63,390 nt of DNA, from IMG/VR virus record IMGVR_UViG_3300019458_000008, positions 1-63,390 of that record. The stretch is one strand, 5' to 3'. The translations under genes were made by a program, and so were the position numbers. Below are positions 3,737 through 45,637 of this stretch, one piece after another; position 1 is the first letter of the stretch; the number at the start of each line of letters is the position of its first letter. The stretch comes from a virus. The notes under the pieces were generated by a model that had not been told where the DNA came from, ran no database searches, and saw only the letters and a list, made by a program, of their open reading frames with translations.

Positions 3737-3741
3737 CTACA

Positions 3742-5934: not shown

Positions 5935-5953
5935 TATTATATAATATTATCGA

Positions 5954-13398: not shown

Positions 13399-13434
13399 AG
13401 GTTAGTAATACCTCCATTCCTACGATAATATCAT

Positions 13435-14838: not shown

Positions 14839-14839
14839 G

Positions 14840-14935: not shown

Positions 14936-14936
14936 A

Positions 14937-16459: not shown

Positions 16460-16462
16460 CGG

Positions 16463-17176
16463 TTACCAGTGGAAGCGGATCTGCTCCGCATAGGCAAGAT
16501 CATCATCGTCCTCATCGAAGCTGCACGGGCAGGCACCTCCGATATCCGCATCAAGTATATCACATACTCCCAGGTGAAGCGGGTGCGGACATCCCCGGCA
16601 CTGCTGAGCCTCATATCCCTTCCCGTAGGGATCTCCGATTGGCGCATGGGGACTAGACAGCATCGTCCATCCCTCACGTGTCCGGCCGGGATGGCTAAAC
16701 AGTTCGAGGTAAGGGCCAGGTGATAGCTGTTCGATATCCGGATATATCTCTGGTGGCTTAACGCTGTGCCCTCGATAGGGGTACTCGAAGTAGGTACTCA
16801 GGCCGCCGAGTACGCCCCGTGCTCCGGGCGACTTCGGGTTGCCCCGGACGCCTAACAAGAGGTGTTCCGTCTGGCTCCGGAGCCACCAGCCAATCCCAAT
16901 GCGTCTCTTGTTCCATGTCCGAAGGCTCTTATACTGGAAGCCCCAGGACTTCATGACCATCAATGCTTCCGGTAGATGGGGATTTGTCGTCCATAGCCAC
17001 AGGTGACACTCGTCGGCTAGCTTACCCTCAAGCTGATCACCAATCTCATATATCTCCTCGATGGTCATCGTATCATAGACCAGCTTACGCATGGCACCGC
17101 CAGTCCGCAGAGACCACGGTGGGTCGGCAACGACCGTCTCGTATTGCTGACTAGGAATTCTGAATCGTAGCCGCAC
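16463..17176 (-). CDS. MT-A70 family N6-adenine DNA methyltransferase
   Basis: ..TVVADPPWSL.. (DPPW), ..HLWLWTTN.., ..WGFQYKS..W.K...G.G.W.R...E.LL.G.RG. Confidence 0.85.
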   Translation of the reverse strand: MRLRFRIPSQQYETVVADPPWSLRTGGAMRKLVYDTMTIEEIYEIGDQLEGKLADECHLWLWTTNPHLPEALMVMKSWGFQYKSLRTWNKRRIGIGWWLRSQTEHLLLGVRGNPKSPGARGVLGGLSTYFEYPYRGHSVKPPEIYPDIEQLSPGPYLELFSHPGRTREGWTMLSSPHAPIGDPYGKGYEAQQCRGCPHPLHLGVCDILDADIGGACPCSFDEDDDDLAYAEQIRFHW

Positions 17177-17888
17177 CGTAGTCCGCCTTCATCTGTTCGC
17201 TGATATCATAGGCCCGCTTACCAAACCGGCGCTTGCCATCCAGCTTCAGTTCGGCAATCATATCTGGATGCTTAGTAAACATGGCAACTACATCTTCAAA
17301 TGATCCGTAATTCGATAGCAGGGTTTCCGCCGACTGAGCGCTCAGGCCCTTGAACGCACACAGGCTCCACACAGTATCCTTGTACGCTGGGTCAATGGCA
17401 ATGACGTTCGGCCGCTCTCTCGATTGAATCCACTTATGCTCGTCCTTTGATAGGCTGCCGACTAGGCGGGCAATCTCTCGGGCTGCATCACCGCTAATGC
17501 ATTCGTGGAATATCAGTCCCATCCATTTCAAGTCGAGGAGCATCCCAGTAAACGAGTCCCATGACCAACCCGACTCATGCCAGCCGCCGTTAGCCTCGTA
17601 GGTCACGACCCCTGATGTTGAGTAATCATACCGGCCTTCGATTAGTATCATAGCCACATCGTATTCGTCAATCAGTTTGTGGGCCTGGGCAATCATCCGC
17701 CCATCTCGCAGGCTGTTGAGCAGGTCATCGATACGCTTACGTTCGATGCCCACCTTCAGACCATGAGGCAAGAACAGATAGTCGCCAGCCGTCAGGGCAG
17801 CCGTCATGACTGTTAGACGATACGATGCCAACTGGTCGATGATATACTTTGGTTCCCGGGTATCGACTACGATAACCTGTTCGCCCAT
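17151..17888 (-). CDS. ERCC4/XPF-Mus81-type structure-specific nuclease
   Basis: ..VVDTREP.., ..AGDYLF.., ..VGIERKRIDDLLNSL.. form the ERCC4 signature (GDx..ERK). Confidence 0.75.
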   Translation of the reverse strand: MGEQVIVVDTREPKYIIDQLASYRLTVMTAALTAGDYLFLPHGLKVGIERKRIDDLLNSLRDGRMIAQAHKLIDEYDVAMILIEGRYDYSTSGVVTYEANGGWHESGWSWDSFTGMLLDLKWMGLIFHECISGDAAREIARLVGSLSKDEHKWIQSRERPNVIAIDPAYKDTVWSLCAFKGLSAQSAETLLSNYGSFEDVVAMFTKHPDMIAELKLDGKRRFGKRAYDISEQMKADYGAATIQNS

Positions 17889-27847: not shown

Positions 27848-30800
27848 TTAGCCATGCGTGGCATACCAATTATATCCCCTCCCCATGGTCACTACAATAG
27901 GTACGCTATGTGGGTCCTCCATATCCCCTCCTCCGAATGGCTGGCCGAGTTCCATTGCTGCCGCCATAGATTCAGCATACCTCAAAACTTCGGGGTTGTC
28001 AAGGCCCCCCTCTCCGCCCTGCACGGACGTAAGTATTTCATCGTGGACTGTCAACAGTATCGTACCGCCCAGGATATCCTTGACCTTCAGTAGGGCGAAC
28101 CGCATCAGATCAGCCGTGGCCGTGCCCTGGACAATGTGACTGATGGTCTCGCGCTCAGCTGCCTCACGCTCCTGCTTATCACTGCTCATCAGGTTCGGTA
28201 TCCGTCTCGGGCGATGGAACAGGGTGTATGCGATATTACCGTTCTCTCTTGCCATGTGTACCGCATACGGTACCCACTCTTTGAAATATCTACCATAGAT
28301 ATCATGGATATTACCGATACCATGCCTGATCTCATTGAGGGTGGGAATCCCCAGGACTGCAAGGGCCGGATCCTCCAGCATTTGTTTCTCAATTACTGCA
28401 TGGATCTCGTCACCCTTACTACCGTACATAGCGCCAAAGAAAAAATTTTTCGCCCGTGTCTTATACGCATTGTATCTCACGGGGTCGTCATGCTTCTGGT
28501 CAGGCGTAACTTTGAACAGTCGTTCGACATTCAGTTCGTGAATATTAACCTTCGGGTCTCTGACCACTTGTAGCATAACCGGGTCCTGTGATACATAGGC
28601 GCCGACACGGACTTCGATCTGTCCATAGTCACCAGCGACTAGCACCTGTCCAGATTCTGCGATGAATACATTTCTCCATGGGACACGTACTTGTTGTAGG
28701 TTCGGGTCTTCCATAGAAAACCGATGACTCCGCACCCTCGTATTAGTAATCGTCGGATGAATCCGTCCGTCCTCCTCGGACTTGGCCAGCCACTCACGTA
28801 GGAACTGCGAGTGCTTCTCCAGCCGCTTCCATTCCAATACCAATGGTATCGCTGAATGCATCTCTCGCATCCTCAAGAGAGCCAATGCATCCACGGACGG
28901 CTGGTTAGTCTGCTGTGACAATCGCTGGACGGGGAATTGTAGATGTTCGTGTAACCACTCGACTAGCTGCTTCGGACTGTTCAACGATATCATCGTCCGC
29001 TCTGAAAACTTACCCTGCCCCCCACAGTCGGTACATCCTTCGCGTTTCCGCTTCCCATTCCTGCAAGTCTTGCACACCCAAACTCTGTCCGGCCTGTTGT
29101 ATCCACTCTCTCGCGCTAGGAAGTCCACGACTGATGCGAGATTGTTCTGCTTCTCTGTAACCTCTGCGAGCAGATCGACGGCCGTTTCGCGGTCGAAAAA
29201 AACTCCCGCCTCCTGCATATCAAGGAGAATAGTGACCATCGGAATATCCACGTTTGTATACAAGTCTGCCATCCGCTGATCAAACTTGGCTGTCAGTAGT
29301 TTCTCTAGTTCAACTGCCCAGTATGCATCTCCGCAATTATGTACTCCATAGCCTTCAACAATATATGTGCCACAGGACGTTTCGATTGAAACTACCCGGC
29401 GGCGACCGATGACGCGTAGTGACACAATTTCTACAGCCGCACTTCCCATGCGTTTGGCTGATGGAGACCAATTAGCTAGAAGACGAGTTGGACGGACTGA
29501 GCCAAGAAGACGCACAGTCTCCCGCCATCCGCCCCTAAGCTGCCATTTTACTAAGCCTTCTTGATTCCATATACTAGCATCGTATCCAGCACTCTCTGAA
29601 TAGGCTATAGCCCGTTCAGCTACCGCTCCAGGCTTCTGGCCCCATCCGATGCCGTTGTGTTGGTCACCCGCCTTTCTTAGGTAACCTTCTCCGTCGAGGT
29701 AGCCCGCAAACCAGCCCGCCTCACGACCATCGTCGAAGTCCCACGGATCAACAAACTTAGATAACCAGCGAGCACCCTGCCGCAGGGAACGCCAGGCATA
29801 TGGCTGGTTCCTTCCTGCCCCCGTTTTAGTAAGAAATGGATGATCTGAAGTTACGGTAAGACAGGTTCCGTCTGCAAGTTCGATACGAACGACTGGTCGT
29901 ATCTCATCATGTCGTGCGGTAACCACTGCATCGCACATCTTCTTTTGGGAATCCGTGAAACCAATCAGTATATCACCAATTTGAATATCGTCAAGCGGCG
30001 TCCAGCGTAGGTCACGGGTAAGAACCCTCATGTCTGGTGTAAAGCAACAATACTCGGCAACTAGCTCTGGGTCAATCGTAGATATCAACCTCCGATCACG
30101 GCCGCTACCAACGACCTCTTCGTAGGTAATATGTCGGTGTTCGAAATATTCTAATACTAACGGCTTGAGTCCCCTAACAGGGAGTCCCAGAAGATAGGCA
30201 GCCACGAGGCTATCTCCTGCCAGAGGGCCGACAGCGATCTTATGGCTTCGAAGTATAGCATAGTCGAACTTTGCAGAATGGCCAATCCAGGACAGTGCAG
30301 GAAGGCAGCGGTTGAGCGCAGCAACCCATTCTGCATCTCGATAATGGCCATAGAAACATCGGCGTCCGATGGCCACACCGATGCCGACGAGGCGATCTCG
30401 TTTTTCGTTTGCATCATCTCCAACGGGGTCAGTCTCCACATCGATTCCTGCGGGGCTTCCATCATGTTCACGGATTGCACGTTCGAACGCATCAATATCC
30501 TCCTTCGATTGTATCAATCTCCATTCGTATGGCTGTTCCCGCACACCATCCACTCTGGCCTCGGGTCGGCCAACGGGTAGGAGCGGCGCGACGAATTCGG
30601 AAACATCATAGTTGATAATCTCGTCGGCCTTATAGGCCGCATGTTGATAGGCGTTCCAGTATCGATGGCGATCAGTCTTAGGCGGAGTCTTAACTAGGTT
30701 ACGGGCCGTCGCTCGGTCAAGCCCATATTGTACTAACGCCCATTCAAGCCGGCTATCGAAGCGGCGAGGCAGAGGATCGTTAGCACCCGTTGCCTCGATA

Positions 30801-31009
30801 GTTACAAGTGCTACCGTTGGAGGCAGCAGTCGCCAGTAGTCTAGTGCTCGCTGACCACAGACTACCGTATCACCGGCCTGTGCGGCCTTCAATAGGGTAT
30901 AGCGGTCAGCGGGCTGGACTCCCTGACCCTGTAGACCAAGCATCTGTGCCCGTAGTACGGCCGCGTCTATTGTCGGCCCGATTGATTCGAGGTCAATATA
31001 GGCAGTCAA
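27848..31009 (-). CDS. polA: family A DNA polymerase with 3'-5' exonuclease domain, interrupted by an intein
   Basis: Exo I ..GIDVETD... Motif A ..VAGDYGQIEVRV... Motif B ..RAKNFFFGAMYG... Motif C ..LTVHDEIL.. Confidence 0.9.
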   Translation of the reverse strand: MTAYIDLESIGPTIDAAVLRAQMLGLQGQGVQPADRYTLLKAAQAGDTVVCGQRALDYWRLLPPTVALVTIEATGANDPLPRRFDSRLEWALVQYGLDRATARNLVKTPPKTDRHRYWNAYQHAAYKADEIINYDVSEFVAPLLPVGRPEARVDGVREQPYEWRLIQSKEDIDAFERAIREHDGSPAGIDVETDPVGDDANEKRDRLVGIGVAIGRRCFYGHYRDAEWVAALNRCLPALSWIGHSAKFDYAILRSHKIAVGPLAGDSLVAAYLLGLPVRGLKPLVLEYFEHRHITYEEVVGSGRDRRLISTIDPELVAEYCCFTPDMRVLTRDLRWTPLDDIQIGDILIGFTDSQKKMCDAVVTARHDEIRPVVRIELADGTCLTVTSDHPFLTKTGAGRNQPYAWRSLRQGARWLSKFVDPWDFDDGREAGWFAGYLDGEGYLRKAGDQHNGIGWGQKPGAVAERAIAYSESAGYDASIWNQEGLVKWQLRGGWRETVRLLGSVRPTRLLANWSPSAKRMGSAAVEIVSLRVIGRRRVVSIETSCGTYIVEGYGVHNCGDAYWAVELEKLLTAKFDQRMADLYTNVDIPMVTILLDMQEAGVFFDRETAVDLLAEVTEKQNNLASVVDFLARESGYNRPDRVWVCKTCRNGKRKREGCTDCGGQGKFSERTMISLNSPKQLVEWLHEHLQFPVQRLSQQTNQPSVDALALLRMREMHSAIPLVLEWKRLEKHSQFLREWLAKSEEDGRIHPTITNTRVRSHRFSMEDPNLQQVRVPWRNVFIAESGQVLVAGDYGQIEVRVGAYVSQDPVMLQVVRDPKVNIHELNVERLFKVTPDQKHDDPVRYNAYKTRAKNFFFGAMYGSKGDEIHAVIEKQMLEDPALAVLGIPTLNEIRHGIGNIHDIYGRYFKEWVPYAVHMARENGNIAYTLFHRPRRIPNLMSSDKQEREAAERETISHIVQGTATADLMRFALLKVKDILGGTILLTVHDEILTSVQGGEGGLDNPEVLRYAESMAAAMELGQPFGGGDMEDPHSVPIVVTMGRGYNWYATHG
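29336..30046 (-). mobile_element. class 1 intein (237 aa) in the polymerase exonuclease domain
   Basis: Begins CFTPDMRVLT (TGC at 30044-30046). Has block B ..LTVTSDHPFLT.., a single LAGLIDADG-like ..FAGYLDGEGY.., and ends ..YIVEGYGVHN, followed by a +1 Cys (29333-29335). Confidence 0.8.
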
Positions 31010-32334: not shown

Positions 32335-32701
32335 GCCCGGCCTCCTCCCAGCGCTCTACAGCGGACTCTCCCAACGCCGCAACTAAGAGTTCACGATCAA
32401 CATCAAGCATGTTAATACCTCCAGGCCAACTACCATCTTTGGCAACGTAAGATTCGTAGTAGATTGCTGGCATCATGCCTCGCCAGGCTTTGGCACATCG
32501 TAACAACCAGTAACGTCTAATAGGAGGAGGAGCACGATTCGTGACTGTAAGGGCGTATGCCTCATCATCATGAATGACACTAATACCCCTTGAATCAAAA
32601 TCAGTAAACCATTCATCTCCCTCCCCTTGTTCATCTAATCCTATGAATCGAGCAAGAACCGTTATTTGTCTGCGTTCTTTCCGGGTAATTTTTTGGCTCA
32701 T
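32327..32701 (-). CDS. hypothetical protein
   Basis: 124-aa ORF. Confidence 0.6.
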   Translation of the reverse strand: MSQKITRKERRQITVLARFIGLDEQGEGDEWFTDFDSRGISVIHDDEAYALTVTNRAPPPIRRYWLLRCAKAWRGMMPAIYYESYVAKDGSWPGGINMLDVDRELLVAALGESAVERWEEAGHE

Positions 32702-33258
32702 CGGGCTCTTCCTACATATCGATAAACGATAGCTCGTACCAAACTATCCCTAATACTTGCTGTTATCGCTGGCCCTGTCCTCAAAGCGTATGAAGGATGG
32801 GGTGCCCCTATTACTATTATTCCAGAGGGTAAGACGCGGGCCAAATCAGCTTGTTCCATAGCCCGTTTTCCAGGAAAGTATAGAGCCCCCGCTGTCGCTC
32901 CTAGCGTAACAATGCATCGCAGATTCTGCAAGCTATCCAGGTTCCGTTGCAAGTATAACGTAGGACACAGACTTGTCGCATCGGGGTAGGGCCAAAGGTC
33001 GTTGTTCGGAGGCCTACAGTGTACTACATTATCAAGAAAAAGCTCCTCCCTGATTAAGCCTACAGATTGCAGGATATTATTCAGATGCTGACCGGCTCGC
33101 CCTACGAACGGGTGGCCGTCAATATCCTCGTCCTTACCTGGGGCTTCACCGATCAGAGCTAGCCACGTATCACTGTCCCCCGTCCCAGGGACTACCCGAG
33201 TCCGGTGTTTGGCCAATCGGCAGCGTGTACAGGATAGCTCCTCAGCCGTCGATACCAT
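32698..33258 (-). CDS. udg: family 4 uracil-DNA glycosylase
   Basis: ..CTRCRL.., ..LIGEAPGKDED..G.PFVGRAG..L.. and ..GAPHPSYALR.. Confidence 0.85.
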   Translation of the reverse strand: MVSTAEELSCTRCRLAKHRTRVVPGTGDSDTWLALIGEAPGKDEDIDGHPFVGRAGQHLNNILQSVGLIREELFLDNVVHCRPPNNDLWPYPDATSLCPTLYLQRNLDSLQNLRCIVTLGATAGALYFPGKRAMEQADLARVLPSGIIVIGAPHPSYALRTGPAITASIRDSLVRAIVYRYVGRAR

Positions 33259-33445: not shown

Positions 33446-33667
33446 TTATTGACAGGATTCCGACGATGATAATGATATAGCAGATCCAGAGTCCAACCCA
33501 ATGCCATGTTCCCCAGTTTCTACGATTCCACCTTCCCACGCAGCGCCTCCTACTCGGCCATCTACACCAGAACACTCTCTACAACCGATGGCAATCTCAC
33601 TTAGTAACAAGGGTGGATTGTCTGGCCCAGCTTCACGGCCGCAAGCATGGCATCGTATATCAGTCAT
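33446..33667 (-). CDS. small zinc-ribbon-like protein
   Basis: 73 aa with CHAC .. CREC. Confidence 0.5.
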   Translation of the reverse strand: MTDIRCHACGREAGPDNPPLLLSEIAIGCRECSGVDGRVGGAAWEGGIVETGEHGIGLDSGSAISLSSSESCQ

Positions 33668-34101: not shown

Positions 34102-34270
34102 CGGCTCGAACGAGTTGCTGGTAGGCTTGCGCGTAACGTGCCTCTCGGTGCCGCCTTTGACTCAGTGAATGTGCAGAGCCGAAGCCTGATAGCATCTTAG
34201 ATTCGGCCGCCAGAAGGGCTTCGAGACGTGCAATCACCCCTGCATTCGTATCATCCTTCTCCGCAGACAT
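34064..34270 (-). CDS. hypothetical small protein
   Basis: 68-aa ORF. Confidence 0.45.
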   Translation of the reverse strand: MSAEKDDTNAGVIARLEALLAAESKMLSGFGSAHSLSQRRHREARYAQAYQQLVRAGARPKLRGKYRG

Positions 34271-34490
34271 TGCATTCCTCTCCGTAACAACGGGCTATCT
34301 TTGTTATGACACAGCCCTTCCGACCACACCGCCAATAATGATACTGTGGTACTGTGGTCGAGAAGCCGGCATACTGCCAGATCGGCGGGCTGTCATGCGT
34401 ATGCCGCTCTGACACCGGAGTTGTATATACTTCCGGTAAGTCCGCCCTACTCGACCCATCGTCTATGATATGGAAGCCTTGGATTTCCAT
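34251..34490 (-). CDS. hypothetical small Cys-containing protein
   Basis: 79-aa ORF. Confidence 0.5.
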   Translation of the reverse strand: MEIQGFHIIDDGSSRADLPEVYTTPVSERHTHDSPPIWQYAGFSTTVPQYHYWRCGRKGCVITKIARCYGEECNVCGEG

Positions 34491-34606: not shown

Positions 34607-34843
34607 CTAGTTGGCGCCCTTCAGACCACCACTGGCCGTTGCTCGGGAGACGATCAGGATCGTGTCGCCGTCGCGCAGCTCGGCGTTGTCACCGACCTTG
34701 CGGCCGTTGACCGTCACGTCGTATGAGGAACCGTGCGGCGCGAACTTCTCGATGGCATCGCCGACCGAACTAATACCGTCATCGAGCGAGAACTGCTCGA
34801 AGCGCTCTCCCTGGACTACGGAAATCTGTCCATTACTTGCCAT
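34607..34843 (-). CDS. ThiS/MoaD-type ubiquitin-like beta-grasp protein with C-terminal ..SGG-LKGAN
   Basis: 78 aa. ..YDVTVNGRKVGDNAELRDGDTILIVSRATASGG is followed by a 5-residue tail. AAGGAGG lies upstream. Confidence 0.75.
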   Translation of the reverse strand: MASNGQISVVQGERFEQFSLDDGISSVGDAIEKFAPHGSSYDVTVNGRKVGDNAELRDGDTILIVSRATASGGLKGAN

Positions 34844-34956: not shown

Positions 34957-35157
34957 CTAATTCAGGCTGATAAACCGCCCACCGATGGTAGACGTAAGTT
35001 GATCGTGTAACGCGACTTCGATCTTCTCGGACTCCTCGATCTCTCGCCTGATACTGTCCATCCGGCTGACTAAGTGTTCATACTCACTCCGTAGCCAGTG
35101 GGTGTAGCCGCGTTGCTTGGCCAACAGGTCTTCGAGTACGGTGTCAGGTAATGTCAT
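34957..35157 (-). CDS. 66-aa coiled-coil protein of the Ubl operon
   Basis: ORF track gives 34957-35214. The in-frame ATG at 35157 (MTLPDTVLEDLL..) overlaps the E1 stop by 14 nt. Confidence 0.5.
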   Translation of the reverse strand: MTLPDTVLEDLLAKQRGYTHWLRSEYEHLVSRMDSIRREIEESEKIEVALHDQLTSTIGGRFISLN

Positions 35158-35833
35158 GATCGCTGTCCTCCTCCCCATATTGCAGCCTATTGATTTCCAT
35201 ATTCGTTCCGACATGCCAGACCAGCATCTTCGGTAGCTTCATGCCCCGGCACCAGTTGTTAATCCAGCATGTAACCTGAGATGCAACCCACATTCCCATG
35301 AACGCTGTCCCCTCCGTACCACATGGGACATCGGGAACGTCCTCTTCACGAGGCAGTGCACCGAGATACTCAGGGATTTGTTCTGGCGTTGCTGAACAAA
35401 GCACGGCGTTCTCCCCCTGTGCTCGGGTATCAATGAACAGTGGAATATTATGTTTCATACTCCACTTAGCAATTGCAGCCCTTCCATCCAGTGTATCAAC
35501 ACATGAGATCACAGCTCCCACGTTCGTAGGAGCCGACTGGTGGGGGAATAGCTCCGCGTAACTCTTGAGAGATAGGCCAAACAGTGACTGTTCCAGACAC
35601 TGGCCTTTGCGGAGGCCGATGTTCTCCTCTATGTATGCCTGGACTCCGACGTTCACATCCTCGACCATATCATCTCCATCGAAGATATGGACTTGCCTGA
35701 CAGCCCGTGATAGCGCATGGGCTGACCACGATCCAAGCATACCCGCACCCGCGATAATGACCTCCATTGCTGCCATGCGTGGGTGGACAATCTGGTGCTG
35801 CCGCTCATGTAGAATCCCTTGTAGCAATGGCAT
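35144..35833 (-). CDS. minimal E1-like ThiF/MoeB-family adenylyltransferase
   Basis: ..VIIAGAGMLGS.. Rossmann loop, ..IFDGDDMVEDVNVGVQ.., ..VISCVDTLDGRAAIA.., ..PCGTEGTAFMGMWVAS.. Confidence 0.75.
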   Translation of the reverse strand: MPLLQGILHERQHQIVHPRMAAMEVIIAGAGMLGSWSAHALSRAVRQVHIFDGDDMVEDVNVGVQAYIEENIGLRKGQCLEQSLFGLSLKSYAELFPHQSAPTNVGAVISCVDTLDGRAAIAKWSMKHNIPLFIDTRAQGENAVLCSATPEQIPEYLGALPREEDVPDVPCGTEGTAFMGMWVASQVTCWINNWCRGMKLPKMLVWHVGTNMEINRLQYGEEDSDHDIT

Positions 35834-35835
35834 CT

Positions 35836-36990
35836 TTACTTCCCCTTCCGTGCTGCCCGCTGCTTACGCCGACCGCCGGCATTCTGCATGTTATCATTAT
35901 CCTTCCACCGGATAACCTTCTCGTCCTTGTTCAAGTACGCATGCGAGGGATCCTTATGGCTCCCGCTCAGTACGCACTGGTTCCCCTTAAATGAGGCTTT
36001 GCAACGCCCGGCCTGCATCGTATCCTGTTGGTATTGCTGCTGCCCTTTACCCGGCTCGAACGTTTCGTACTCATCCTTGTCCTGCGAGGACCACCATAGA
36101 TGCTGTGGGCTACTGTGTCCCTGTGGTAACATACAGCCTCGAAATCCTCCTGTACTGTTGACCCACCCGACCTGACATAACGACTTCCGATCACGGGCTG
36201 TGATCCGGCCGTTGCCCCGCTTGAACATCTGGATCAAGTCATCCATATCCTCATCCGTAAGGACAACTCCAGCCATGTCAGCATATGCAGCAGCCGCAGC
36301 TTTCGCATCCTCGTCATCCATATCATCGATAGTCTCGTCATCCAGTGACGTATCGTTGATATTATCCACCTGTCGTTTGATACATTGCTGACAGCAGCAA
36401 GCGTCAGCGTGTTTCGAGAACTGTAATGGATAGGTCTTCCGCCGCACATCTTTCAGTTGTTCATCAATCTCCCTATCCAAGTAGGCGAGGTCTGGTGGCT
36501 CAACTGACGGTATGACAGTAGCCCTTAAGTGCAGTGGCTCACGGACAATGAGCCAGCTAGTCATTTCCATCTTCGTATTGACAACCAGCCCAATCATCCA
36601 TGACAACTGCTCCTCACGGAGCAAGTCCCACAACTGTTCCGTATCAGTATTCGATGGTGATGTGCCCATTGAGGCATGGGAGTGCCAGATCCCCCGCCAG
36701 ATACTCCACAATGAGGTCTGCTCCTGCTGTGCAGTCTCGTTTGCTAGCTCGACAAGGTACTTGTGGAAGTCCTTAGCCCCCACATCGAAGTGGGCGCTTT
36801 GTACTTCTTGTGGTGGAATCCGAATATCCGTTGCACGGAAGTACGTATCTGTATTGTCAGCATTATCGGCCGGCTGAACTCGCTCGATGCGGAGTAGGCC
36901 GCCGACCTCTAGTGTTTTATCATGTAGAACTGCCCGCCGGATTTTATATGCCGTCTCTTGCGTAATGTGTAGTTCGATATCCGATCCCAT
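35836..36990 (-). CDS. JAB/MPN (JAMM) metalloprotease with about 230-aa C-terminal extension
   Basis: E28 (..LEVGG..) and H103-S-H105-x7-S113-x2-D116 (WHSHASMGTSPSNTD). Confidence 0.8.
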   Translation of the reverse strand: MGSDIELHITQETAYKIRRAVLHDKTLEVGGLLRIERVQPADNADNTDTYFRATDIRIPPQEVQSAHFDVGAKDFHKYLVELANETAQQEQTSLWSIWRGIWHSHASMGTSPSNTDTEQLWDLLREEQLSWMIGLVVNTKMEMTSWLIVREPLHLRATVIPSVEPPDLAYLDREIDEQLKDVRRKTYPLQFSKHADACCCQQCIKRQVDNINDTSLDDETIDDMDDEDAKAAAAAYADMAGVVLTDEDMDDLIQMFKRGNGRITARDRKSLCQVGWVNSTGGFRGCMLPQGHSSPQHLWWSSQDKDEYETFEPGKGQQQYQQDTMQAGRCKASFKGNQCVLSGSHKDPSHAYLNKDEKVIRWKDNDNMQNAGGRRKQRAARKGK

Positions 36991-36996
36991 GATATT

Positions 36997-38877
36997 TTAC
37001 TCCTCCACGTCCTGGTCCTCGTAGTTGTAGTCATCATCGTCCGCTAGAACTTGTGATACTTCGGCCGCCGGTGTCGAATCCGGTATACGCCGATAGTCAA
37101 TATCCGGATGTTCATCCAGCCACGTATGTAAACGTTCAGTTGACTCCGTATCCGGCGGTAACTCTAGGTCGTATTCCCTACTAGGAAAGCATAAGGTTAA
37201 TAAGCACGACCGGCATATGGCCGCACTCTGCCAAGGGGTACTTCTATCTATGTAAATATTAGGAATAAAGCGGTACAGAATATTAAACTGTCTGTTACAC
37301 TCGTTGCATCCTATATCGTATAAATTAGGGACAACGAAGATACTAAAGGTCTCGTGGGGGGGCGATAGGGAAGTTGCCTGTAGTAGCAGTTCAGTCGGGT
37401 AGCTCTCAATACTATATGGCACACACCGACATCTTTTAGAGGCTAAGTTACAACCAGCACATGTAGGCGTATGAGTTTCACTGATACAGAATGTGCATCT
37501 ATGCCTCACCTCCGATAGCGACTGCCGTGCTTGGTATACCGAATTCTGGCCAAAGCAGCCAACACAAGGGCCATTTGCCGGAACGGGTGCTTCGGGAAGC
37601 CCTTCTTCTAGAAATATCCTATCCCACCAAGCGGGAGTTGGTGGATAAGGGATTTGATAGCGGTGCTGAGATCTTAGATGCGTAGAGGGGCTGCTGTTAG
37701 TTGATTGTGCGTCTTGTTCCATAGTAATTACACGTTCAGATACAAGGGCAGTGACTGGGACATGCCGGACACGTCGAGTTCGGTTTGATGTGACTACGGT
37801 TACACGCTGGTCTGCTATCCAACGTTCCCACGTAGGTGTCATATACCGTGGTGTCTTGAATAGTGATGCCCAACCTGTGGTCTGGAACTGACCACTTAGC
37901 TGACTGTTCCGATCCCAGCCGTACCGCCAACGTTCCATTATACTGACAACACCGCGTAGATCACCTGCTTGGAACAGATTGTCTATAAGCCGTTCAACTG
38001 ATTCGCCGCTAATGCTTCGTCCGAAGCAAATAGTATCCGAAGCATGTGGATGAAGTAGGCTCCCATCATCGTTGGTTGGATAGGGAGTGACTGTCGCGTC
38101 GTGTGGCTGAAACAGAAACTCTGTAATCGAGGTCATGTACGCACCACGCTCATAAACCAGCAATACTGGACGGAAGGCTACGTATAGAGAATTGGGTGGA
38201 ATATGCAGCTGGAACCTACCGTTGTTCGCGTGATTGTATTCACCAAGGGACGGGGGACAGTTACTTACTTCACCTTCATCATGTCCCCGCGTAGCCCAAT
38301 GGAGCACTTCTTCATTGTCAGCGAAGAACTCGGTTAATGCAGCCCGATCAAGATAGCGTTCAGTATTACCTAATGCGGACATTTGATTAATATTATGCAA
38401 AAGCAAATCCCGTTCCCGCTGACACTGCTCTTGATTTGCATCTCTCTGGGCTATGTATGCTCGATAGGTGTCCACTCGGTCTGCCAGCCTGCCTTGGGCA
38501 GATTGGGGCAGTATACTTAAAACTAATGCGGTGTGCTCGGGCGGCCCACTGCCATCACTATCATATACAGGAGCCTCCTCGCCTCGGTGTACGACAAAAG
38601 TTGTCGGGCTTAGCATGCTTACAACTAGGCTAGTGTCAGCATCAAGGATTGGTCGAAGAGTGCGAGTGATTCGCCGTGCAATTGCCCGCGCTGTCCGCAA
38701 ACGTCCAGTATTTGTGCGTATAGCCTCCTTAATGTCGATGATCTCATTTGTTTCGAGATTTACTATGTTTATGTAGGGCCCCATGAACCCGGGCGCAATC
38801 CTGTCGCTAACTGCGCGCAAATCCCGAGTCGCACGCATGGGGGTAAATCGTTGAGTTTCCGATTGAACTCTTGGCAT
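36997..38877 (-). CDS. large E2 (UBC)-like protein with Cys-rich zinc-finger-like C-terminal region
   Basis: ..TPYPTNDDGSLLHPHASDTICFG.. (HPH 276-278, Cys284 codon at 38026-38028). Residues about 455-560 carry CxxC/CxC pairs (CVGC, CTFC, CAGC, CRC, CNEC, CRSC). Confidence 0.6.
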   Translation of the reverse strand: MPRVQSETQRFTPMRATRDLRAVSDRIAPGFMGPYINIVNLETNEIIDIKEAIRTNTGRLRTARAIARRITRTLRPILDADTSLVVSMLSPTTFVVHRGEEAPVYDSDGSGPPEHTALVLSILPQSAQGRLADRVDTYRAYIAQRDANQEQCQRERDLLLHNINQMSALGNTERYLDRAALTEFFADNEEVLHWATRGHDEGEVSNCPPSLGEYNHANNGRFQLHIPPNSLYVAFRPVLLVYERGAYMTSITEFLFQPHDATVTPYPTNDDGSLLHPHASDTICFGRSISGESVERLIDNLFQAGDLRGVVSIMERWRYGWDRNSQLSGQFQTTGWASLFKTPRYMTPTWERWIADQRVTVVTSNRTRRVRHVPVTALVSERVITMEQDAQSTNSSPSTHLRSQHRYQIPYPPTPAWWDRIFLEEGLPEAPVPANGPCVGCFGQNSVYQARQSLSEVRHRCTFCISETHTPTCAGCNLASKRCRCVPYSIESYPTELLLQATSLSPPHETFSIFVVPNLYDIGCNECNRQFNILYRFIPNIYIDRSTPWQSAAICRSCLLTLCFPSREYDLELPPDTESTERLHTWLDEHPDIDYRRIPDSTPAAEVSQVLADDDDYNYEDQDVEE

Positions 38878-38909
38878 AACTTTGTACCCCCTCTATCCCC
38901 TTCTATCCC

Positions 38910-39209
38910 CTACAGTCCGTCCTCAATTTGCTGCCAGATTGCCGTAACATCCGGCGGCTCCTCGTGTCGTATGGCCAATGGCTCCTTGCCAATAAGCCGT
39001 ACTACCTTGCCCTTATGCAACAAGTTGAGCAGCAGAATCCGCTCGGCCCCAGGGATCAGTGACCTTTGGACTTGCGTAACAGTACGGTGAATGTGGTTGC
39101 CCCACATATCATCGTCAACGCGGATAACTCCGAATCGGGGATCGAGTGCCTGTATCACGTCAACCATTTTTCCTGTACCTCCTACTAGGATATTAGTTAC
39201 TTCCACCAC
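38910..39209 (-). CDS. hypothetical protein
   Basis: 99-aa ORF with a GTG start. Confidence 0.55.
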   Translation of the reverse strand: MVEVTNILVGGTGKMVDVIQALDPRFGVIRVDDDMWGNHIHRTVTQVQRSLIPGAERILLLNLLHKGKVVRLIGKEPLAIRHEEPPDVTAIWQQIEDGL

Positions 39210-39319
39210 GTTCGGATCATGTACCAGAGGCCGACTAACCAGCCGCTAATACTTGTACTGAACATAATCAGTCCGTCAATGTCAATCGGATGCGTACTGC
39301 CGTGAAACCACTCGATCAT
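39197..39319 (-). CDS. 40-aa hydrophobic peptide
   Basis: Not in the ORF track. Sequence is MIEWFHGSTHPIDIDGLIMFSTSISGWLVGLWYMIRTWWK. Its start forms an ATGA overlap with the upstream stop. Confidence 0.45.
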   Translation of the reverse strand: MIEWFHGSTHPIDIDGLIMFSTSISGWLVGLWYMIRTWWK

Positions 39320-39711
39320 ACTGAGCAATTCTCCGTACGCCACAATCCATACTCATCTCCATTGCGAACCTTATGTGCTATCTCGGTAAAGGATAGCCGG
39401 TAGACATCGTTATCACGGTCTAAGCTAGCCTCCTCTTTGTAGAAGGTATATTCCCCTCTTACACCTACTAATCCCAACCAATCTTTAACGATTATCGGCA
39501 GTTGATATTGCGATTCTAGTACAATACCAGTCAGTAACTCCTCTCCTTCCTCTCTTCGAAAGACCTCACAAGCTACCCCCAAACAGCAGTGTTCATTACC
39601 CCTCCGAAGCCTCCCGTATCCTTGCGTATACTCCCCGCTTTCCAAGGCTTCCGCCCAGGCCATTCGTGCTTGCTCAGGAGTCAGCTTAAACTTCATCATA
39701 GCGATTTCCAC
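39316..39711 (-). CDS. hypothetical protein
   Basis: 131-aa ORF with ..WAEALESGEYTQGYGRLRRGNEHCCLGVACEV.. Confidence 0.6.
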   Translation of the reverse strand: MEIAMMKFKLTPEQARMAWAEALESGEYTQGYGRLRRGNEHCCLGVACEVFRREEGEELLTGIVLESQYQLPIIVKDWLGLVGVRGEYTFYKEEASLDRDNDVYRLSFTEIAHKVRNGDEYGLWRTENCSV

Positions 39712-40007
39712 CCCCGTCCAGAATATGACCTGAAGGCTCGTTTACCCCTCCTTAGTTCCTCAATGCAAGCATCACATAGATCGCTGGTCACTTCGCGCCG
39801 CGCCCATATTTCCTCGCCATCGCTGTCCATATCCCGTGTGATCTCTCCCTCTGGCGTTCGTATGAGCTTCGACACCTTCGTCCGTATCGCAGGCCGAAGC
39901 TCGCCCTTGGTTGCGAGCGTACCGCAGCCTTTGCATTTCGCCATATTATCCGTCCGTCCTTCTGGCCGCTGCTCTGAGGCCAGGGTTAGCTTACCCCGAA
40001 TCGGCAC
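39696..40007 (-). CDS. small zinc-ribbon-like protein
   Basis: CKGC .. CDAC. The likely start is MAKCKGC, about 21 codons in. Confidence 0.5.
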   Translation of the reverse strand: MPIRGKLTLASEQRPEGRTDNMAKCKGCGTLATKGELRPAIRTKVSKLIRTPEGEITRDMDSDGEEIWARREVTSDLCDACIEELRRGKRAFRSYSGRGWKSL

Positions 40008-40070
40008 GGCTTGTCAACCCCCAATTTTCGAGCTTCGCATGATCACATATCAGCTCCGCTGACACGTCTG

Positions 40071-40337
40071 CTATCCAGATAGCAGCCCCTTTTCACGGGC
40101 AAGTGCCATGCCCTTGTCAAAGTTACGTGGTCCGACTCCGCTCTTGTGTACTCGTATAATGCCGAGCCCCTTCTGTACGACGTATCCAACACCATCGCAG
40201 CCCCACGTAGAGCCGGGTGATGACTGCCGGAAGCATTGTAGGATATCGTGCGCCCGCTGTACGCGACTGTCGAAGGCAGACTCCGGCACAGTACGTTCCG
40301 TGTATACGACTATTCCAGCTCCATACGTAACATCCAT
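40071..40337 (-). CDS. hypothetical protein (first gene of the leftward arm)
   Basis: ORF track gives 40071-40349. The ATG at 40337 (MDVTYGAG..) follows GAGGAGG. Confidence 0.55.
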   Translation of the reverse strand: MDVTYGAGIVVYTERTVPESAFDSRVQRAHDILQCFRQSSPGSTWGCDGVGYVVQKGLGIIRVHKSGVGPRNFDKGMALAREKGLLSG

Positions 40338-40458
40338 ATTGCAGACCAACCTCCTCGCGTCTGTATCCCATATCCCATACTAAGGGAGAATGGCCTCCCG
40401 TAGTCACGGGTCGTGGCGCCGCTACCTTACATACAATATTAAGGGACGTAGACTCCAT

Positions 40459-40477
40459 ATCATACCGATATAGTCAA
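40459..40477 (-). promoter_or_regulatory. weaker promoter-like motif TTGACTATATCGGTATGAT (same N7 spacing)
   Basis: Lies at the head of the leftward arm and shares the TTGAC(A/T)-N7-TAT(A/G)AT architecture. Confidence 0.4.
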
Positions 40478-41028
40478 CTCTAGGGCACTCGCCGTGTCTA
40501 TGGGAAGGCCGTTCCTCCCGTAGGCCATATGCGCTAAGAGCCGATGCCGACTCCTGGTCGCTCTGGCCCGAAAACAAAAACGCTGACCCCTTTTGGATTC
40601 GTTACAGCGGCCTCATATGAGCGAGGCTCGTAGTTGCCCAATGTCCCCTACCTCCTATCTCGCCTGTATGTCTGTTCGTATCCTAGTCACGTGCCAATGT
40701 ATCGTCTATATCATACTACCGATCGTCCAGTACGCGCCCTCGCGCATAGTGTCGCGCTACATTGACATCTCATATGCGCGAACGGTATCGCCGTTCTGTA
40801 ACGTTCGAAAGTATCCCCCGTTCAGGGGTTCAGGGTATCGCCATCCGGTCGATAATGCTGGTGAGAGTGACAGCCATAGTGAACGGCTCTCAGATTCCGG
40901 CAAGGGCCGGAAGCGAACCTGAATAACCGAATATTGCAGATTCGATGATTGCGAGGTTATCGCCATATCGTAGGCATGGCAAGCCAACCTATCGGTAGGT
41001 TTACGATTCATGCATAGGAGTATCTACA

Positions 41029-41511
41029 ATGGCATCCGAAGGTAAGCCTCAAACGCTCGAATCACTGCTAGCTGACTTTGTAGTCGCCAGTAACGAGCGT
41101 ATGGGCAAGATCGAATCGACGCTGGAAAGGCTCGCCACTCGCAAGACTGCGAAGCGTTCCGGCAAGGCAGCGCCGAAGGTCAAGTATGACCTTGGCCTAG
41201 GGCCGTTCATGCCCTCCAAGGGCATACCGTCCGCCAAGGGCATGGCCAAGGTCAAGGCGTGGGCCACAAATGGCGACGTTGCCCGCCTCCGCGAATATGC
41301 GGGTATCGGCCCATCTGTCAAAGGCAAGGACGAACCCGCCCGCGTTGCCGTGTTCGAACCTAACCGCCTGTTGGCCCAGCGTATCGTGGAAAAGGCGTTT
41401 GACGAAGAGGGTAAGCCCCTCTCCAAGTACATGACGCCGATCACGACACGCGACGCAACGCCAGAGGCGAAGGCCAGCCGGAAGCGAGGCGGGAAGGCCG
41501 CTAGCAAGTAA
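41029..41511 (+). CDS. basic hypothetical protein
   Basis: 160-aa Lys/Ala-rich ORF with GGAG upstream. Confidence 0.6.
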   Translation: MASEGKPQTLESLLADFVVASNERMGKIESTLERLATRKTAKRSGKAAPKVKYDLGLGPFMPSKGIPSAKGMAKVKAWATNGDVARLREYAGIGPSVKGKDEPARVAVFEPNRLLAQRIVEKAFDEEGKPLSKYMTPITTRDATPEAKASRKRGGKAASK

Positions 41512-41582
41512 GTAGGGACACGCGACCAGGGGCAGGGAAGCCCCATCACACCACCACGACATGAATAGGAGATTATCGAATC

Positions 41583-41774
41583 ATGGACTCACGCATAGGT
41601 AATCAATGCCTTGATTGCGGTCACAAAGGCTTCACAATCAACCAAGGCTGGGCATCATGTCCGAAGTGTCACGGCCATGATATCCACTACTGGAAGGATG
41701 GGGAGCTTCAGGGCGTAGCGCCCATTCAGCGAGCGTACACTACCGGCGACGCTCGCGGCACGACCACGAAATAG
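41583..41774 (+). CDS. small zinc-ribbon protein
   Basis: 63 aa with CLDC .. CPKC. Confidence 0.55.
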   Translation: MDSRIGNQCLDCGHKGFTINQGWASCPKCHGHDIHYWKDGELQGVAPIQRAYTTGDARGTTTK

Positions 41775-41790
41775 GCAACGTTCCCCGCCA

Positions 41791-41832
41791 AGAGAGGCCG
41801 TCCATAATCATACGTGGATGGCCTCTCTCTTT
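41791..41832 (+). terminator. strong stem-loop terminator candidate
   Basis: 14-bp stem AGAGAGGCCGTCCA / TGGATGGCCTCTCT (one G-U pair) with a 10-nt loop, followed by CTTT. It starts 17 nt after the stop codon. Confidence 0.65.
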
Positions 41833-42237
41833 ACCCTGCCTACCTTAACCCTCTCGTAAAGGTTAAACTCCGCTCATAACGTCTCGCTACGGCCCTAATC
41901 TGCCCTACCCCTGTGTCCTTGACTGGCCCATAGGCCGAACGCCCGTCTACGGCTCGCCAGCGGCCAGCGGCAACCCTTCAGTATCGCTACCGTCCTGCTA
42001 CCTGGCCGCATTCTCTCGCGCTGCCAGCTTCGAGCTAGGGAATTGCCAGGGCATCGAGCTAGACTGCCGCTCCGATGGCATGTGAGGCCATGGTATCGCC
42101 TGCCTATTGCGTCTGTTATCGTGCATATCGTAGGTGTCCTGTATCTATGATATTGTAGAACGCCTAGTATATATGGTATTACCTGCTGCCCTCTACTATA
42201 TATGGTAGACCAGCACACCGACCGATACCCCGACGAA

Positions 42238-42256
42238 CGATGATATCATCTATTCG
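42238..42256. repeat. 19-nt direct repeat CGATGATATCATCTATTCG, copy 1
   Basis: Identical copy at 42311-42329. Lies in non-coding DNA. Confidence 0.9.
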
Positions 42257-42310
42257 CTACCAGGACGCACATTTAGAGCCCCCCGAAGCCCTCCCCCTCC
42301 ACTGTATCAT

Positions 42311-42329
42311 CGATGATATCATCTATTCG
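42311..42329. repeat. 19-nt direct repeat, copy 2
   Basis: Identical to 42238-42256. Confidence 0.9.
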
Positions 42330-42701
42330 GTAGACCGCCAGCCTATATCATATATAATATCATCGGCCCCCTCCCCCCTCCCCAGCTGGCCGCCCATATC
42401 ATATATCATCGATAAGGGGGCCGGGTTGGGTCGCGGCTGATGGAGAGGGTTGCTAATAACAGCACAGATGTTTTTAGGATTTTGAAATCGATGATATTAC
42501 TGCTAATCTGTGTAGACGATATGACAGATAATATCGGCAGATAACATCACCAGTCAGCGGCCGGGCAGACAGGCGGGTAGATACCGGAATCGTTGTTCGT
42601 CTATATCTCTGACCTGCGATATCTCCGTTCCGGCATCCGAGATGGCGGCCGCTCTGCATTCCCACTGCATTCCGATAATTATATATAGGCCGACGGAGAA
42701 T

Positions 42702-42803
42702 GGATAGGATGACGATCATTTTCTACTATACGTAGAAACACAGAACAATCGTTCTATAATAAGTACTATTATCGTATAATGGAAAATGATCGTCATCCTA
42801 TCC
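42702..42803. repeat. 22-bp perfect inverted repeat (arms 42702-42723 and 42782-42803) around a 58-nt AT-rich spacer
   Basis: GGATAGGATGACGATCATTTTC pairs with GAAAATGATCGTCATCCTATCC. Confidence 0.9.
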
Positions 42804-42810
42804 AATGTCC

Positions 42811-42830
42811 CTTGACAAGGGTGTTATAAT
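42811..42830 (+). promoter_or_regulatory. promoter-like motif CTTGACAAGGGTGTTATAAT for the rightward arm
   Basis: Lies 50 nt upstream of the ATG at 42881 and is flanked by GGAAAATGATCG boxes at 42781-42792 and 42842-42853. Confidence 0.65.
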
Positions 42831-42880
42831 GATCGTGTAGTGGAAAATGATCGCAATGCGATCTCATGTAGGAGGTAAGT

Positions 42881-43594
42881 ATGGGGTACAACGAAAAGCT
42901 GGCTGTTGGCAAGCCAGGAGAGATCTTTGAGCTAAACGGTACGTGGTATAAGATCGTTGAGGAGAAAGGGAACAAGCTACTCGGTAAGCGGCAGGAGAGG
43001 TTCCACCCACAGCCCGTTGATCTAGGTGAAGAATGGTACCATCCGGATGGGAAACTGCGGATCTGTAAGAATCCTAAGTGCCCGAATCTAGTACCGCGTA
43101 GCAAGAACCCCGGCCGAGAACGGATCTATTGTAATAGGAGGTGCCTCCAACAGCATGTTCAACGGCGCTACAATAGCGCACAGGGGTGTGTTGGTATTGA
43201 AGGACAGCGTGATGTATTCGGGCGACTCTATGCAATTCGTAACTTTCGCACCGTTCGTGTTTTACCTCTGACGGCGAAGCACCACGTCATGGATCATCTC
43301 GATGATCGGTATGGCCGCTGTCCCGAAGCGGCCGAAGCCTCTAGCTTCCGATGCCCCGCCGTCTGGAACCCGAACTGCATTGATGAATACCAATGGTCTA
43401 GGTGGCACCAGACCGGTCCATGGCCGGGCGCCTGCCTAATTGCAGCTGCGCTTAAGGACAACTACTGGGAGGCTATCCACCACGATGCTGGCCAGCCGGT
43501 CGAGAGGCGATATACGATCGGCCGAGGGGCAACCTGGCGATGGCGCGATGAGGATACTATGCTCCCAATGCCAGAAGGCATTGTTCGTCCGTAG
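42881..43594 (+). CDS. hypothetical Cys-motif protein (possible DNA-binding/regulatory)
   Basis: 237 aa with GGAGG upstream and ..CKNPKCPNLVPRS..RIYCNRRCLQQH.. Confidence 0.65.
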   Translation: MGYNEKLAVGKPGEIFELNGTWYKIVEEKGNKLLGKRQERFHPQPVDLGEEWYHPDGKLRICKNPKCPNLVPRSKNPGRERIYCNRRCLQQHVQRRYNSAQGCVGIEGQRDVFGRLYAIRNFRTVRVLPLTAKHHVMDHLDDRYGRCPEAAEASSFRCPAVWNPNCIDEYQWSRWHQTGPWPGACLIAAALKDNYWEAIHHDAGQPVERRYTIGRGATWRWRDEDTMLPMPEGIVRP

Positions 43595-45256: not shown

Positions 45257-45637
45257 ATGTCTAGAGAAGTAATTATAGCTGATGGTAGGCCTGTAGTCGC
45301 AACCCGCGTGAGCCGTAAAGAGGCCATGGAGCGGGCCGAGCTGTTTGTTGCCAAGAACCTGCCGAAGTACCTCAAGAAGCTACATGAGCTGGCAATGGGC
45401 ATCACGGCGGTCAAGGACACGAAGGCTGGGCCGAAGATATACATGGAGCCACCCGATCGGCAGGCTCTGCAATACCTAATTGACCGAGGCCTTGGTAAGA
45501 TTCCCGACCGCGTGGAGCTGACCGGTGAAGATGGCGGTCCAATGGCTATAATCCCTTGGATGCCGAAGAGGTTGCTGGATGAGCAGGTCATTGACGGCGA
45601 GGCTAGGGACGTAACCGACGAAAGTCCAGATGGCTAA
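45257..45637 (+). CDS. terS: small terminase subunit candidate
   Basis: 126 aa directly upstream of, and overlapping, terL. ..PPDRQALQYLIDRGLGKIP.. is a pattern common in TerS proteins. Confidence 0.55.
   Translation: MSREVIIADGRPVVATRVSRKEAMERAELFVAKNLPKYLKKLHELAMGITAVKDTKAGPKIYMEPPDRQALQYLIDRGLGKIPDRVELTGEDGGPMAIIPWMPKRLLDEQVIDGEARDVTDESPDG

Follow-up and report, generated by a model that had tools for sequence, protein, structure and literature searches.

Conjugation of ubiquitin-like proteins (Ubls) in bacteria, as known from Cap2 and Cap3 of type II CBASS (cyclic oligonucleotide-based antiphage signalling systems), from Bil and from Bub, has until now been presented as a weapon that hosts use against phages. 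In the Bil operon, a Ubl (BilA), an E2 conjugating enzyme (BilB), a JAB peptidase (BilC) and an E1 activating enzyme (BilD) are encoded in the order Ubl-E2-JAB-E1. Among phages, a Ubl and JAB pair was found only in tail-assembly clusters, and operons holding E1, E2, JAB and Ubl only in bacteria (Iyer et al. 2006). Here we describe virus record IMGVR_UViG_3300019458_000008 of IMG/VR, a stretch of 63,390 nt (hereafter the window) that makes up nearly all of a 63,408-nt metagenomic contig and in which a 626-aa protein that we label X is encoded at 36,997-38,877 on the minus strand, within a cassette that also holds a candidate Ubl precursor, an activating enzyme and a trimming or deconjugating peptidase. 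The label X is extended to the proteins that occupy the same slot in other phages. What is new is that a phage carries a Ubl-E1-JAB cassette, and that the transfer or targeting protein of this cassette is unrecognisable and may not be of the UBC type; no interpretation of the X-JAB-ThiF block was found in the literature, of which our coverage was incomplete, so that this is an absence of evidence only.

A first reading of the letters of the window (the original prediction) had suggested that X may join a UBC-type E2 to a RING-like, and hence E3-like, zinc finger. Our own reading is more tentative, with a probability of roughly 0.4: X would be a fast-evolving, phage-specific third enzyme of a phage Ubl cassette, functionally an E2 plus specificity factor. 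Ubiquitin-type chemistry for X draws strong support from neighbours that the prediction had left out, namely a JAB protein, a ThiF/E1 and a ThiS-like protein bearing Gly-Gly, and an E2-like role is best argued from gene position, because the Bil order Ubl-E2-JAB-E1 puts the E2 in the slot of X. It is plausible to call X E2-like by position and motif, as opposed to a UBC-fold E2 or a RING E3.

The cassette and the systems it resembles

The genes for X (the first of the cassette), the JAB protein, the E1, a small open reading frame (ORF) and the Ubl candidate all lie on the minus strand and are tightly packed, with 6 nt between the stop of X and the start of JAB and 2 nt between the stop of JAB and the start of E1. 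No terminator-like sites were found inside this minus-strand set, and promoter- and terminator-like sites show no enrichment. The JAB/JAMM metallopeptidase (384 aa; 35,836-36,990, minus strand) matches Pfam Prok-JAB above the cut-off (7e-7) and PADLOC JAB models down to 1.3e-10, and its motif is intact (E28, H103-S-H105-x7-S113-x2-D116). Next comes a minimal ThiF/E1-like adenylating enzyme of 229 aa (35,144-35,833, minus strand; Pfam ThiF 1.3e-10, likewise above the cut-off), with G29-x-G-x-x-G34 and with Cys171 placed in 'PCGTEG' at the crossover-loop position. The GxGxxG motif, the adenylation Asp, Arg and Lys, and Cys171 are invariant in an alignment of six phage E1s that is itself too divergent to serve a pattern scan. 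Among PADLOC models the enzyme matches the E1 part of Cap2-type E1-E2 proteins (7.6e-6), and its best PDB match is TcdA (2.4e-5).

A small ORF without a family match (85 aa, or 66 aa in the source assembly; 34,957-35,214, minus strand) stands between the E1 and a ThiS/MoaD-like beta-grasp candidate of 78 aa (34,607-34,843, minus strand), which we treat as the Ubl candidate. Its end reads ...ILIVSRATAS-G72-G73-LKGAN, with the Gly-Gly codons at 34,625-34,630. Besides ThiS, it matches TGS and Ub-Mut7C in Pfam, and its weak PDB matches are doublecortin, MoaD (1vjk) and PF1061 (1rws) at E values of 0.2-0.5; every matched family, in Pfam as in the PDB, is beta-grasp, and the matches other than ThiS are weak. 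Beyond it lies a gene of the uracil-DNA glycosylase (UDG) superfamily (32,698-33,258, minus strand; Pfam UDG 7e-24), which is also the conserved neighbour of this block in the crAss-like and the FpV4-like phages. As separate observations, the JAB protein carries a C-terminal extension of ~230 aa (~160-384) with an acidic stretch, segments that contain Cys and His (CCCQQC among them) and an end rich in Lys, for which a weak DUF4186 match was obtained (E=0.0014), and small ORFs with paired CxxC, zinc-ribbon-like and without a family match, occur near the cassette at 33,446-33,667, 34,251-34,490, 39,696-40,007 (minus strand) and 41,583-41,774 (plus strand).

In the scheme that we infer, the JAB enzyme would trim LKGAN from the 78-aa beta-grasp candidate to expose Gly-Gly, the ThiF/E1 protein would adenylate the Ubl C-terminus (Gly73) and probably load the Ubl onto its Cys171, and Cys284 of X, within H-P-H-x5-C-x-G, would receive it. 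X would then hand the Ubl on to a target from phage or host, selected through the putative zinc module, the acidic tail and/or the first 200 residues of X, and JAB could reverse the modification. Should conjugation be what the cassette does, phages would have a counterpart of the bacterial systems, with possible roles in counter-defence, host takeover or the control of replication proteins, and its transfer enzyme might be a new fold.

The same genes admit a sulfur-carrier or small-molecule pathway, in which the E1 adenylates the ThiS-like protein and this, once trimmed by JAB, becomes a thiocarboxylate, as in the CysO/Mec+ and QbsE/QbsD systems. X would then be a metal- or Fe-S-dependent enzyme that inserts sulfur or modifies nucleotides, with DNA precursors or tRNA as its substrates. 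Consistent with it, ThiS is the best family of the Ubl candidate, the best solved relative of the E1 (TcdA) is ThiF-like and acts on a nucleoside, UDG, PolA, a nucleoside 2-deoxyribosyltransferase and MT-A70 are neighbours, and thirteen cysteines are clustered in X. We nonetheless consider this pathway quite unlikely, given that no rhodanese, cysteine desulfurase, PP-loop, radical-SAM or ThiG/MoaE/CysM/TtuA-like protein was found among the ORFs scanned, that the X family of crAss-like and FpV4-like phages has no Cys-rich module, and that the best-scoring models for the E1 and JAB are those of Cap2 and Cap3 of CBASS, which are of the conjugation type.

Compared with Bil, the window likewise has four components: a Ubl candidate that bears Gly near its C-terminus, a JAB, an E1 and, where Bil has its E2, a protein with a candidate Cys. 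The order X-JAB-E1 in the window, and gp79(Ubl?)-gp78-gp77-gp76 in the phage crAss001, follow that of Bil, and a separate E3 is absent from both, the Bil E2 being thought to choose its own targets. Unlike Bil, which is found in a bacterial defence island, the cassette is phage-encoded and sits in a replication module; its E1 is a bare adenylation domain of 229 aa, where that of Bil is IAD-AAD-CYS; its slot protein, of 626 aa, is an orphan in which no UBC fold could be detected and which carries a putative zinc module besides; and its Ubl gene is downstream of E1 instead of upstream of the slot protein.

Type II CBASS, with its E2-E1 fusion Cap2 and its JAB protein Cap3, offers the models against which the E1 and JAB of the window score best, and Cap2 shares with the window an E1 catalytic Cys on a crossover loop with no helical insertion; the E2 of Cap2, too, is non-canonical and lacks HPN. 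In contrast to CBASS, the cassette has no CD-NTase and no effector, its E1 is not fused to an E2, its beta-grasp Ubl candidate is a separate protein, and X matches no Cap2 or E2 model. Bub (6E/DUF6527) is similar in that its E2s are diverged beyond sequence detection and in that a JAB processes the Ubl precursor after a conserved Gly. Bub enzymes, however, use Ser/Tyr oxyesters and have no catalytic Cys, whereas the window has candidate cysteines in both enzymes (C171 of the E1 and C284 of X), and it has no DUF6527 protease.

X and the proteins in the same slot

The ORF that had been predicted for X does exist, and it lies on the minus strand (38,877→36,997), the plus-strand translation being broken by many stops. 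The features that had been read from it (HPH-x5-Cys, a YP element, six Cys pairs and an acidic tail) are all present in the translation. Residues 221-235 read RFQLHIPPNSLYVAF, TPYPTN occupies residues 264-269, and the candidate active-site motif H276-P277-H278-x5-C284-F-G286 is encoded at 38,020-38,052 (minus strand). The first ~200 residues were said to hold no recognisable motif, and indeed no match to Pfam (E<=1), PHROGs, PADLOC or PDB sequences (E<=10) was obtained anywhere in the protein. An origin of the ORF as an intein or fusion artefact was ruled out, there being no Hint or LAGLIDADG signal within it. Directly upstream of the start (38,878-38,912, minus strand) a short tandem repeat of GGGGATAGA(A/G) precedes GGGGGTACAAAGTT-ATG, in which the run of purines is probably a ribosome-binding site.

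Searches with the E1 (tblastn) revealed distant short ThiF proteins in Flavobacterium phages of the FpV4 group, in Dulem virus 41 and in Xanthomonas and Erwinia jumbo phages. In FpV4 and Dulem virus 41, a JAB-like gene (HSH-x7-S-x2-D) is found upstream of ThiF and is itself preceded by a 'hypothetical' X, with a UDG close by. In crAss001 the block reads gp78 (X), gp77 (JAB), gp76 (ThiF), gp75 and gp74 (UDG), of which GenBank labels gp76 'thiamine biosynthesis protein ThiF' and gp77 'metalloprotease domain'. The order [X]-[JAB]-[ThiF] near UDG and in a replication module is shared by crAss001, cr85_1, Dulem virus 41 and FpV4, the block being located in replication modules beside primase, UDG or polymerase. 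The crAss/FpV4 X family includes crAss001 gp78, FpV4 gp52 and many Crassvirales proteins, and Y-x-H-S-H, C-x-G and E-S-x2-(G)-x-P are invariant in its 46 members.

Upstream of X in four of these phages are homologous proteins at the position of gp79 (crAss001 3,893-4,567, cr85_1 4,204-4,857, Dulem virus 41 3,194-3,874 and FpV4 2,607-3,473), in which a conserved N-terminal domain of ~90 residues ends in an invariant K-x3-S-G and is followed by a long tail. To judge from these features, gp79-type proteins may be Ubl precursors. A beta-grasp fold received no confirmation in them, comparisons with the Ubl candidate of the window and with the PDB being not significant, and the 78-aa candidate showed no link either to the gp79-position proteins of crAss-like phages or to the C-terminal domain of the X family. 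The locus 3,893-9,770 of crAss001 (MH675552) holds the whole gp79-gp78-gp77-gp76-gp75-gp74 block; Crassvirales and FpV4-like phages keep this block in their replication modules, and it looks like an undescribed phage system of the Ubl type. As crAss001 can be cultured, the question is directly testable there.

In Xanthomonas phage PhiXhv-15, the protein directly upstream of the short ThiF is XYR93121.1, of 892 aa (3,241-5,919 of the locus). Three of its features recur in the X of the window, namely RIHPH-x12-CLG (there HPH-x5-CFG), a C-terminus very rich in Cys and an acidic end, and, like that protein, it appears from its sequence to have a coiled-coil-like stretch before the motif. Unlike the X of the window, it has an extra Cys-rich N-terminus. 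No homologues were found for it, so that it is itself an orphan, and no JAB was detected in the ORFs neighbouring its ThiF. Both of its termini are extremely Cys-rich, with runs such as CSCCSDCESSPCKCCNRCLC.

The X of the window shares with the crAss/FpV4 family the slot directly upstream of JAB-ThiF near UDG, and an H-[SP]-H followed by C-x-G and then a helix; it satisfies the family motif with Pro for Ser and a shorter spacer. It differs in its C-terminal half, which carries Cys clusters where that of the family is alpha/beta. By motif and position, then, the slot and a His-x-His...Cys-x-Gly site are shared by the window and the other phages, with homology unproven.

Strength of the link, fold tests and the cysteine module

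HP[NH]-x(4-9)-C arises in 1.3% of composition-preserving shuffles of X, so that on its own, and with multiple testing taken into account, the HPH-Cys motif is not significant for a reader scanning a 63-kb sequence. For a pattern derived from the invariants of the crAss/FpV4 family, H[SP]H-x(4-20)-C-x-G, the probability of a chance occurrence is 0.13% in the X of the window and likewise 0.13% in the Xanthomonas-phage protein, and none of the other six-frame ORFs of the window contains it. A hidden Markov model (HMM) of the family core gave a single local alignment on the X of the window, at residues 280-294 (SDTICFGRSISGESV against fktvClGsgplsevi; E=0.11, searched against one sequence), and it aligned IHPH...CLGS of the Xanthomonas-phage protein with iHSH...ClGs at E=0.0037, in agreement with the top hhalign alignment. 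The Cys-rich tails of the window and Xanthomonas-phage proteins match each other by BLAST (E=0.022) and by Smith-Waterman alignment (z=3.2, p=0.006).

Several results weigh against an E2-like role for X. Firstly, the neighbours are imperfect: the 229-aa E1 is a bare domain with no obvious E2-recruiting domain, and the Ubl candidate matches Pfam ThiS at 5.6e-4 with 20.8 bits, below the cut-off of 22.5. Secondly, homologues of X were limited to the protein itself, both in a word-indexed search of 5.8 billion clusters and in an exhaustive phmmer search of 1.84 billion representatives. Likewise, tblastn against GenBank phages gave nothing, X, E1, JAB and PolA found no match when used to scan contigs from viruses, metagenomes and genomes, and by these searches X is a strict orphan. 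Thirdly, comparisons of the X of the window with the syntenic X proteins by BLAST, by hhalign and with a full-length family HMM (~0 bits) yielded nothing significant; the core of the window protein aligned with that of the Xanthomonas-phage protein no better than shuffled sequences (Smith-Waterman z = -0.5), and the spacing from HxH to Cys is 5 in the window and 12-19 in the family. Because all homology tests failed, the link of X to the syntenic proteins rests on synteny, a short motif and architecture.

Tests of fold and family point the same way. The X of the window matched none of Pfam UQ_con, Prok-E2_A-E and the PADLOC models of CBASS E2 and E1-E2 proteins, and neither the whole protein nor its residues 188-330 matched PDB sequences at E<=10. 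Against UBE2D2, BLAST paired the motif at E=1.3 only, and hhalign returned an empty result. The 46 family members gave 0 matches to UQ_con, Prok-E2 and the PADLOC E2 models. A single-sequence AlphaFold model of X (mean pLDDT, the predicted local distance difference test, of 37) was unusable and was discarded; the segment that the original prediction had read as beta-meander and YP element (residues 218-290; 38,008-38,226, minus strand), whose Smith-Waterman score is given above, has a pLDDT of 27-31 in it, and the best part of this otherwise unreliable model is a long helix by DSSP at residues 125-169 (38,371-38,505, minus strand), in a block with pLDDT 50-55.

For the crAss/FpV4 X family, AlphaFold run from the family alignment reached a pLDDT of 84. 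In this model, N-terminal helices are followed by strands at 75-87, 93-105 and 111-122, a short helix, a loop with Y131, H133, S134 and H135, a short strand, Cys150 at the start of helix 155-163, helix 170-183 and an alpha/beta C-terminal half, an order of predicted elements that is loosely reminiscent of a UBC domain. Foldseek, however, found nothing in the PDB at E<=1e-3, the UBC domain of Ubc6 (9eyh_A) ranking fourth with E=1.1, a probability of 0.10 and a TM (template modelling) score of 0.31, and matches in BFVD were limited to uncharacterised family members. As a separate matter, the sole PDB sequence match of the family profile is ubiquitin (7m3q_B, E=0.48; profile positions 314-344), and residues 240-286 of the model form a beta-beta-alpha-beta-beta unit; the C-terminal half of crAss-type X (~240-350) may contain beta-grasp-like domains.

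The UBC reading made for X at the outset finds no support, in that sequence, profile and structure tests give no UBC placement, and comparison with the prokaryotic E2 families, of a kind that had been suggested as a check, produced no Pfam Prok-E2 or PADLOC E2 match. The candidate site follows HP[N/H] before Cys as in E2s, but has HPH-x5-C where these have HPN-x7/8-C, and has no conserved Trp or Pro after the Cys; a canonical E2 active-site loop would not tolerate the HxH-Cys spacing of 5 to 19. It is worth noting that bacterial E2s are themselves highly diverged, Cap2 and BubB lacking HPN and helices 3-4, and because of this divergence a remote relationship to UBC is conceivable. That HPH is a bacterial form of HPN as in Cap2 was considered and rejected, the Cap2 E2 having no such motif altogether.

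Two further explanations were weighed. In the first, X belongs to the cassette and is no thioester carrier; it would be a substrate of Ubl attachment, or a scaffold or adaptor such as a zinc-dependent replication factor that binds DNA or protein, its activity or stability being controlled by E1, JAB and Ubl, with the E1 conjugating directly. Direct conjugation of this sort is known from E1-only systems of the archaeal SAMP/UbaA type. The operon and synteny evidence serves this explanation just as it serves an E2-like X, the structure search with the syntenic family detected no UBC fold, the block is always in replication modules beside primase, UDG or polymerase, and X has traits that would suit a binding protein, being large and having a predicted long helix, a putative zinc module and an acidic tail. 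Yet the invariant His, His, Cys, Glu and Ser of the family look catalytic, not structural, and a protein with 3 Lys in 626 residues makes a poor lysine-modified substrate; on balance we hold this explanation to be rather unlikely. The Lys content itself (3/626, with 57 Arg) compares with 3.3% phage-wide (binomial P ~1e-6) and is compatible with avoidance of self-modification by an E2-like X, an argument to which we give little weight because other large proteins of the window are similarly depleted: near-equal Lys poverty in the 1277-aa ORF at 5,954-9,787 (plus strand; 0.78%) and in the ORF at 479-1,303 (plus strand; 0.73%) tells against it.

In the second, the motif is a coincidence and X is unrelated to its neighbours, being one more of the fast-changing genes that the phage would express early or midway, perhaps a zinc-finger protein that serves anti-defence or host takeover. 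The 1.3% frequency among shuffles, the want of a statistically significant link to any syntenic X and the many orphan genes of the phage all agree with this. It leaves the gaps of 6 and 2 nt to JAB and E1 to accident, and likewise the recurrence, in the same slot of four unrelated phage groups, of a large variable gene with H[SP]H...CxG, a motif with a probability of ~1e-3 in each of two independent orphans; we consider it very unlikely.

The Cys pairs in the C-terminal part of X are real (CVGC at 438, CTFC at 461, CAGC at 473, CRC at 483, CNEC at 524 and CRSC at 555, plus C563), with 13 of the 16 cysteines of X falling within residues 438-563, where the original prediction had put the span at about 455-560. 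Because six CxxC or CxC pairs were never reached in 5000 composition-preserving shuffles (0/5000; mean 0.76), the module is not due to chance. The first cluster, CxxC-x19-CxxC-x8-CxxC-x6-CxC (C438-C485; 37,423-37,566, minus strand), offers eight putative ligands and is probably two Zn sites, and the second, CNEC-x27-CRSC-x4-C (C524-C563; 37,189-37,308, minus strand), is probably a third. An acidic tail follows at residues 566-626 (37,000-37,182, minus strand), with 12 Asp and 9 Glu (21/61) and 0 Lys.

The idea of RING-like fingers was not supported. Four of the pairs could form a binuclear site, as in a binuclear RING, and a Cys carrier combined with a zinc-finger specificity element recalls a UBC E2 with a RING E3, as in the Caldiarchaeum E1/E2/RING cascade. 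The consensus used for comparison was C-x2-C-x(9-39)-C-x(1-3)-H-x(2-3)-C-x2-C-x(4-48)-C-x2-C, with a match to a RING, U-box, ZZ or PHD family as the alternative test. The spacing 2-19-2-8-2-6-1 of the first cluster does not fit the RING cross-brace, its second and third pairs being separated by 8 residues where a RING has 2-3, and no Pfam zinc-finger family was matched by X at E<=1. The spacing may be closer to ZZ-like patterns. Membership of X in the UBC and RING families is, by these sequence comparisons, unproven, and the tests that were made went against it. Of the proposal that one polypeptide combines E2 and E3, the function is partly supported by context and motif, and the family membership is not.

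The module is present in the Xanthomonas-phage protein and absent from the crAss/FpV4 family; because of this distribution it looks like a variable accessory, plausibly an element that binds a partner or a target. A wider claim is that the X of the window, the Xanthomonas-phage protein and the family of crAss001 gp78 and FpV4 gp52 make up a new, hyper-divergent, non-UBC class of Cys-dependent Ubl-transfer enzymes, combining E2 and E3 in a conjugation run by phages. We regard this claim as doubtful; were it true, tailed phages, including the abundant crAss-like phages of the gut, would have in their replication modules a ubiquitin-like conjugation system of their own, with proteins of the host or of the phage as its targets.

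The phage and other features of the window

The window belongs to a tailed phage, with a family-A DNA polymerase, UDG, a helicase, a large terminase, an HK97-type major capsid protein, lysozyme and an MT-A70 methylase. No close relative was found in GenBank phages or in IMG/VR. An assignment to the crAss-like phages was rejected: the large terminase matches mainly through an intein shared with mycobacteriophages, the capsid is of the ordinary HK97 type, and there is no close relative. The terminase (45,630-48,293, plus strand) has a LAGLIDADG segment at ~299-360, apparently an intein, and its region 53-488 has 34.5% identity to the terminase region of Cjw1-like mycobacteriophages. A second apparent intein, with a Hint module at ~319-395, is found in the family-A DNA polymerase (27,848-31,009, minus strand).

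The structural module is largely unrecognisable, and ORFs with no Pfam or PHROG match lie on the plus strand at 53,338-59,109 (1923 aa), 5,954-9,787 (1277 aa), 3,742-5,934 (730 aa) and 48,313-50,361 (682 aa). On the minus strand, an array at 12,537-17,888 encodes a nucleoside 2-deoxyribosyltransferase-like protein, a protein with a CxxCxxCC zinc/iron-chelating domain, lysozyme, the MT-A70 methyltransferase and an ERCC4 nuclease. At ~39,000-43,000, cumulative GC skew reaches its minimum and the genes switch from the minus strand (replication) to the plus strand (packaging and structural), which marks this as a region of divergent transcription or a possible origin.

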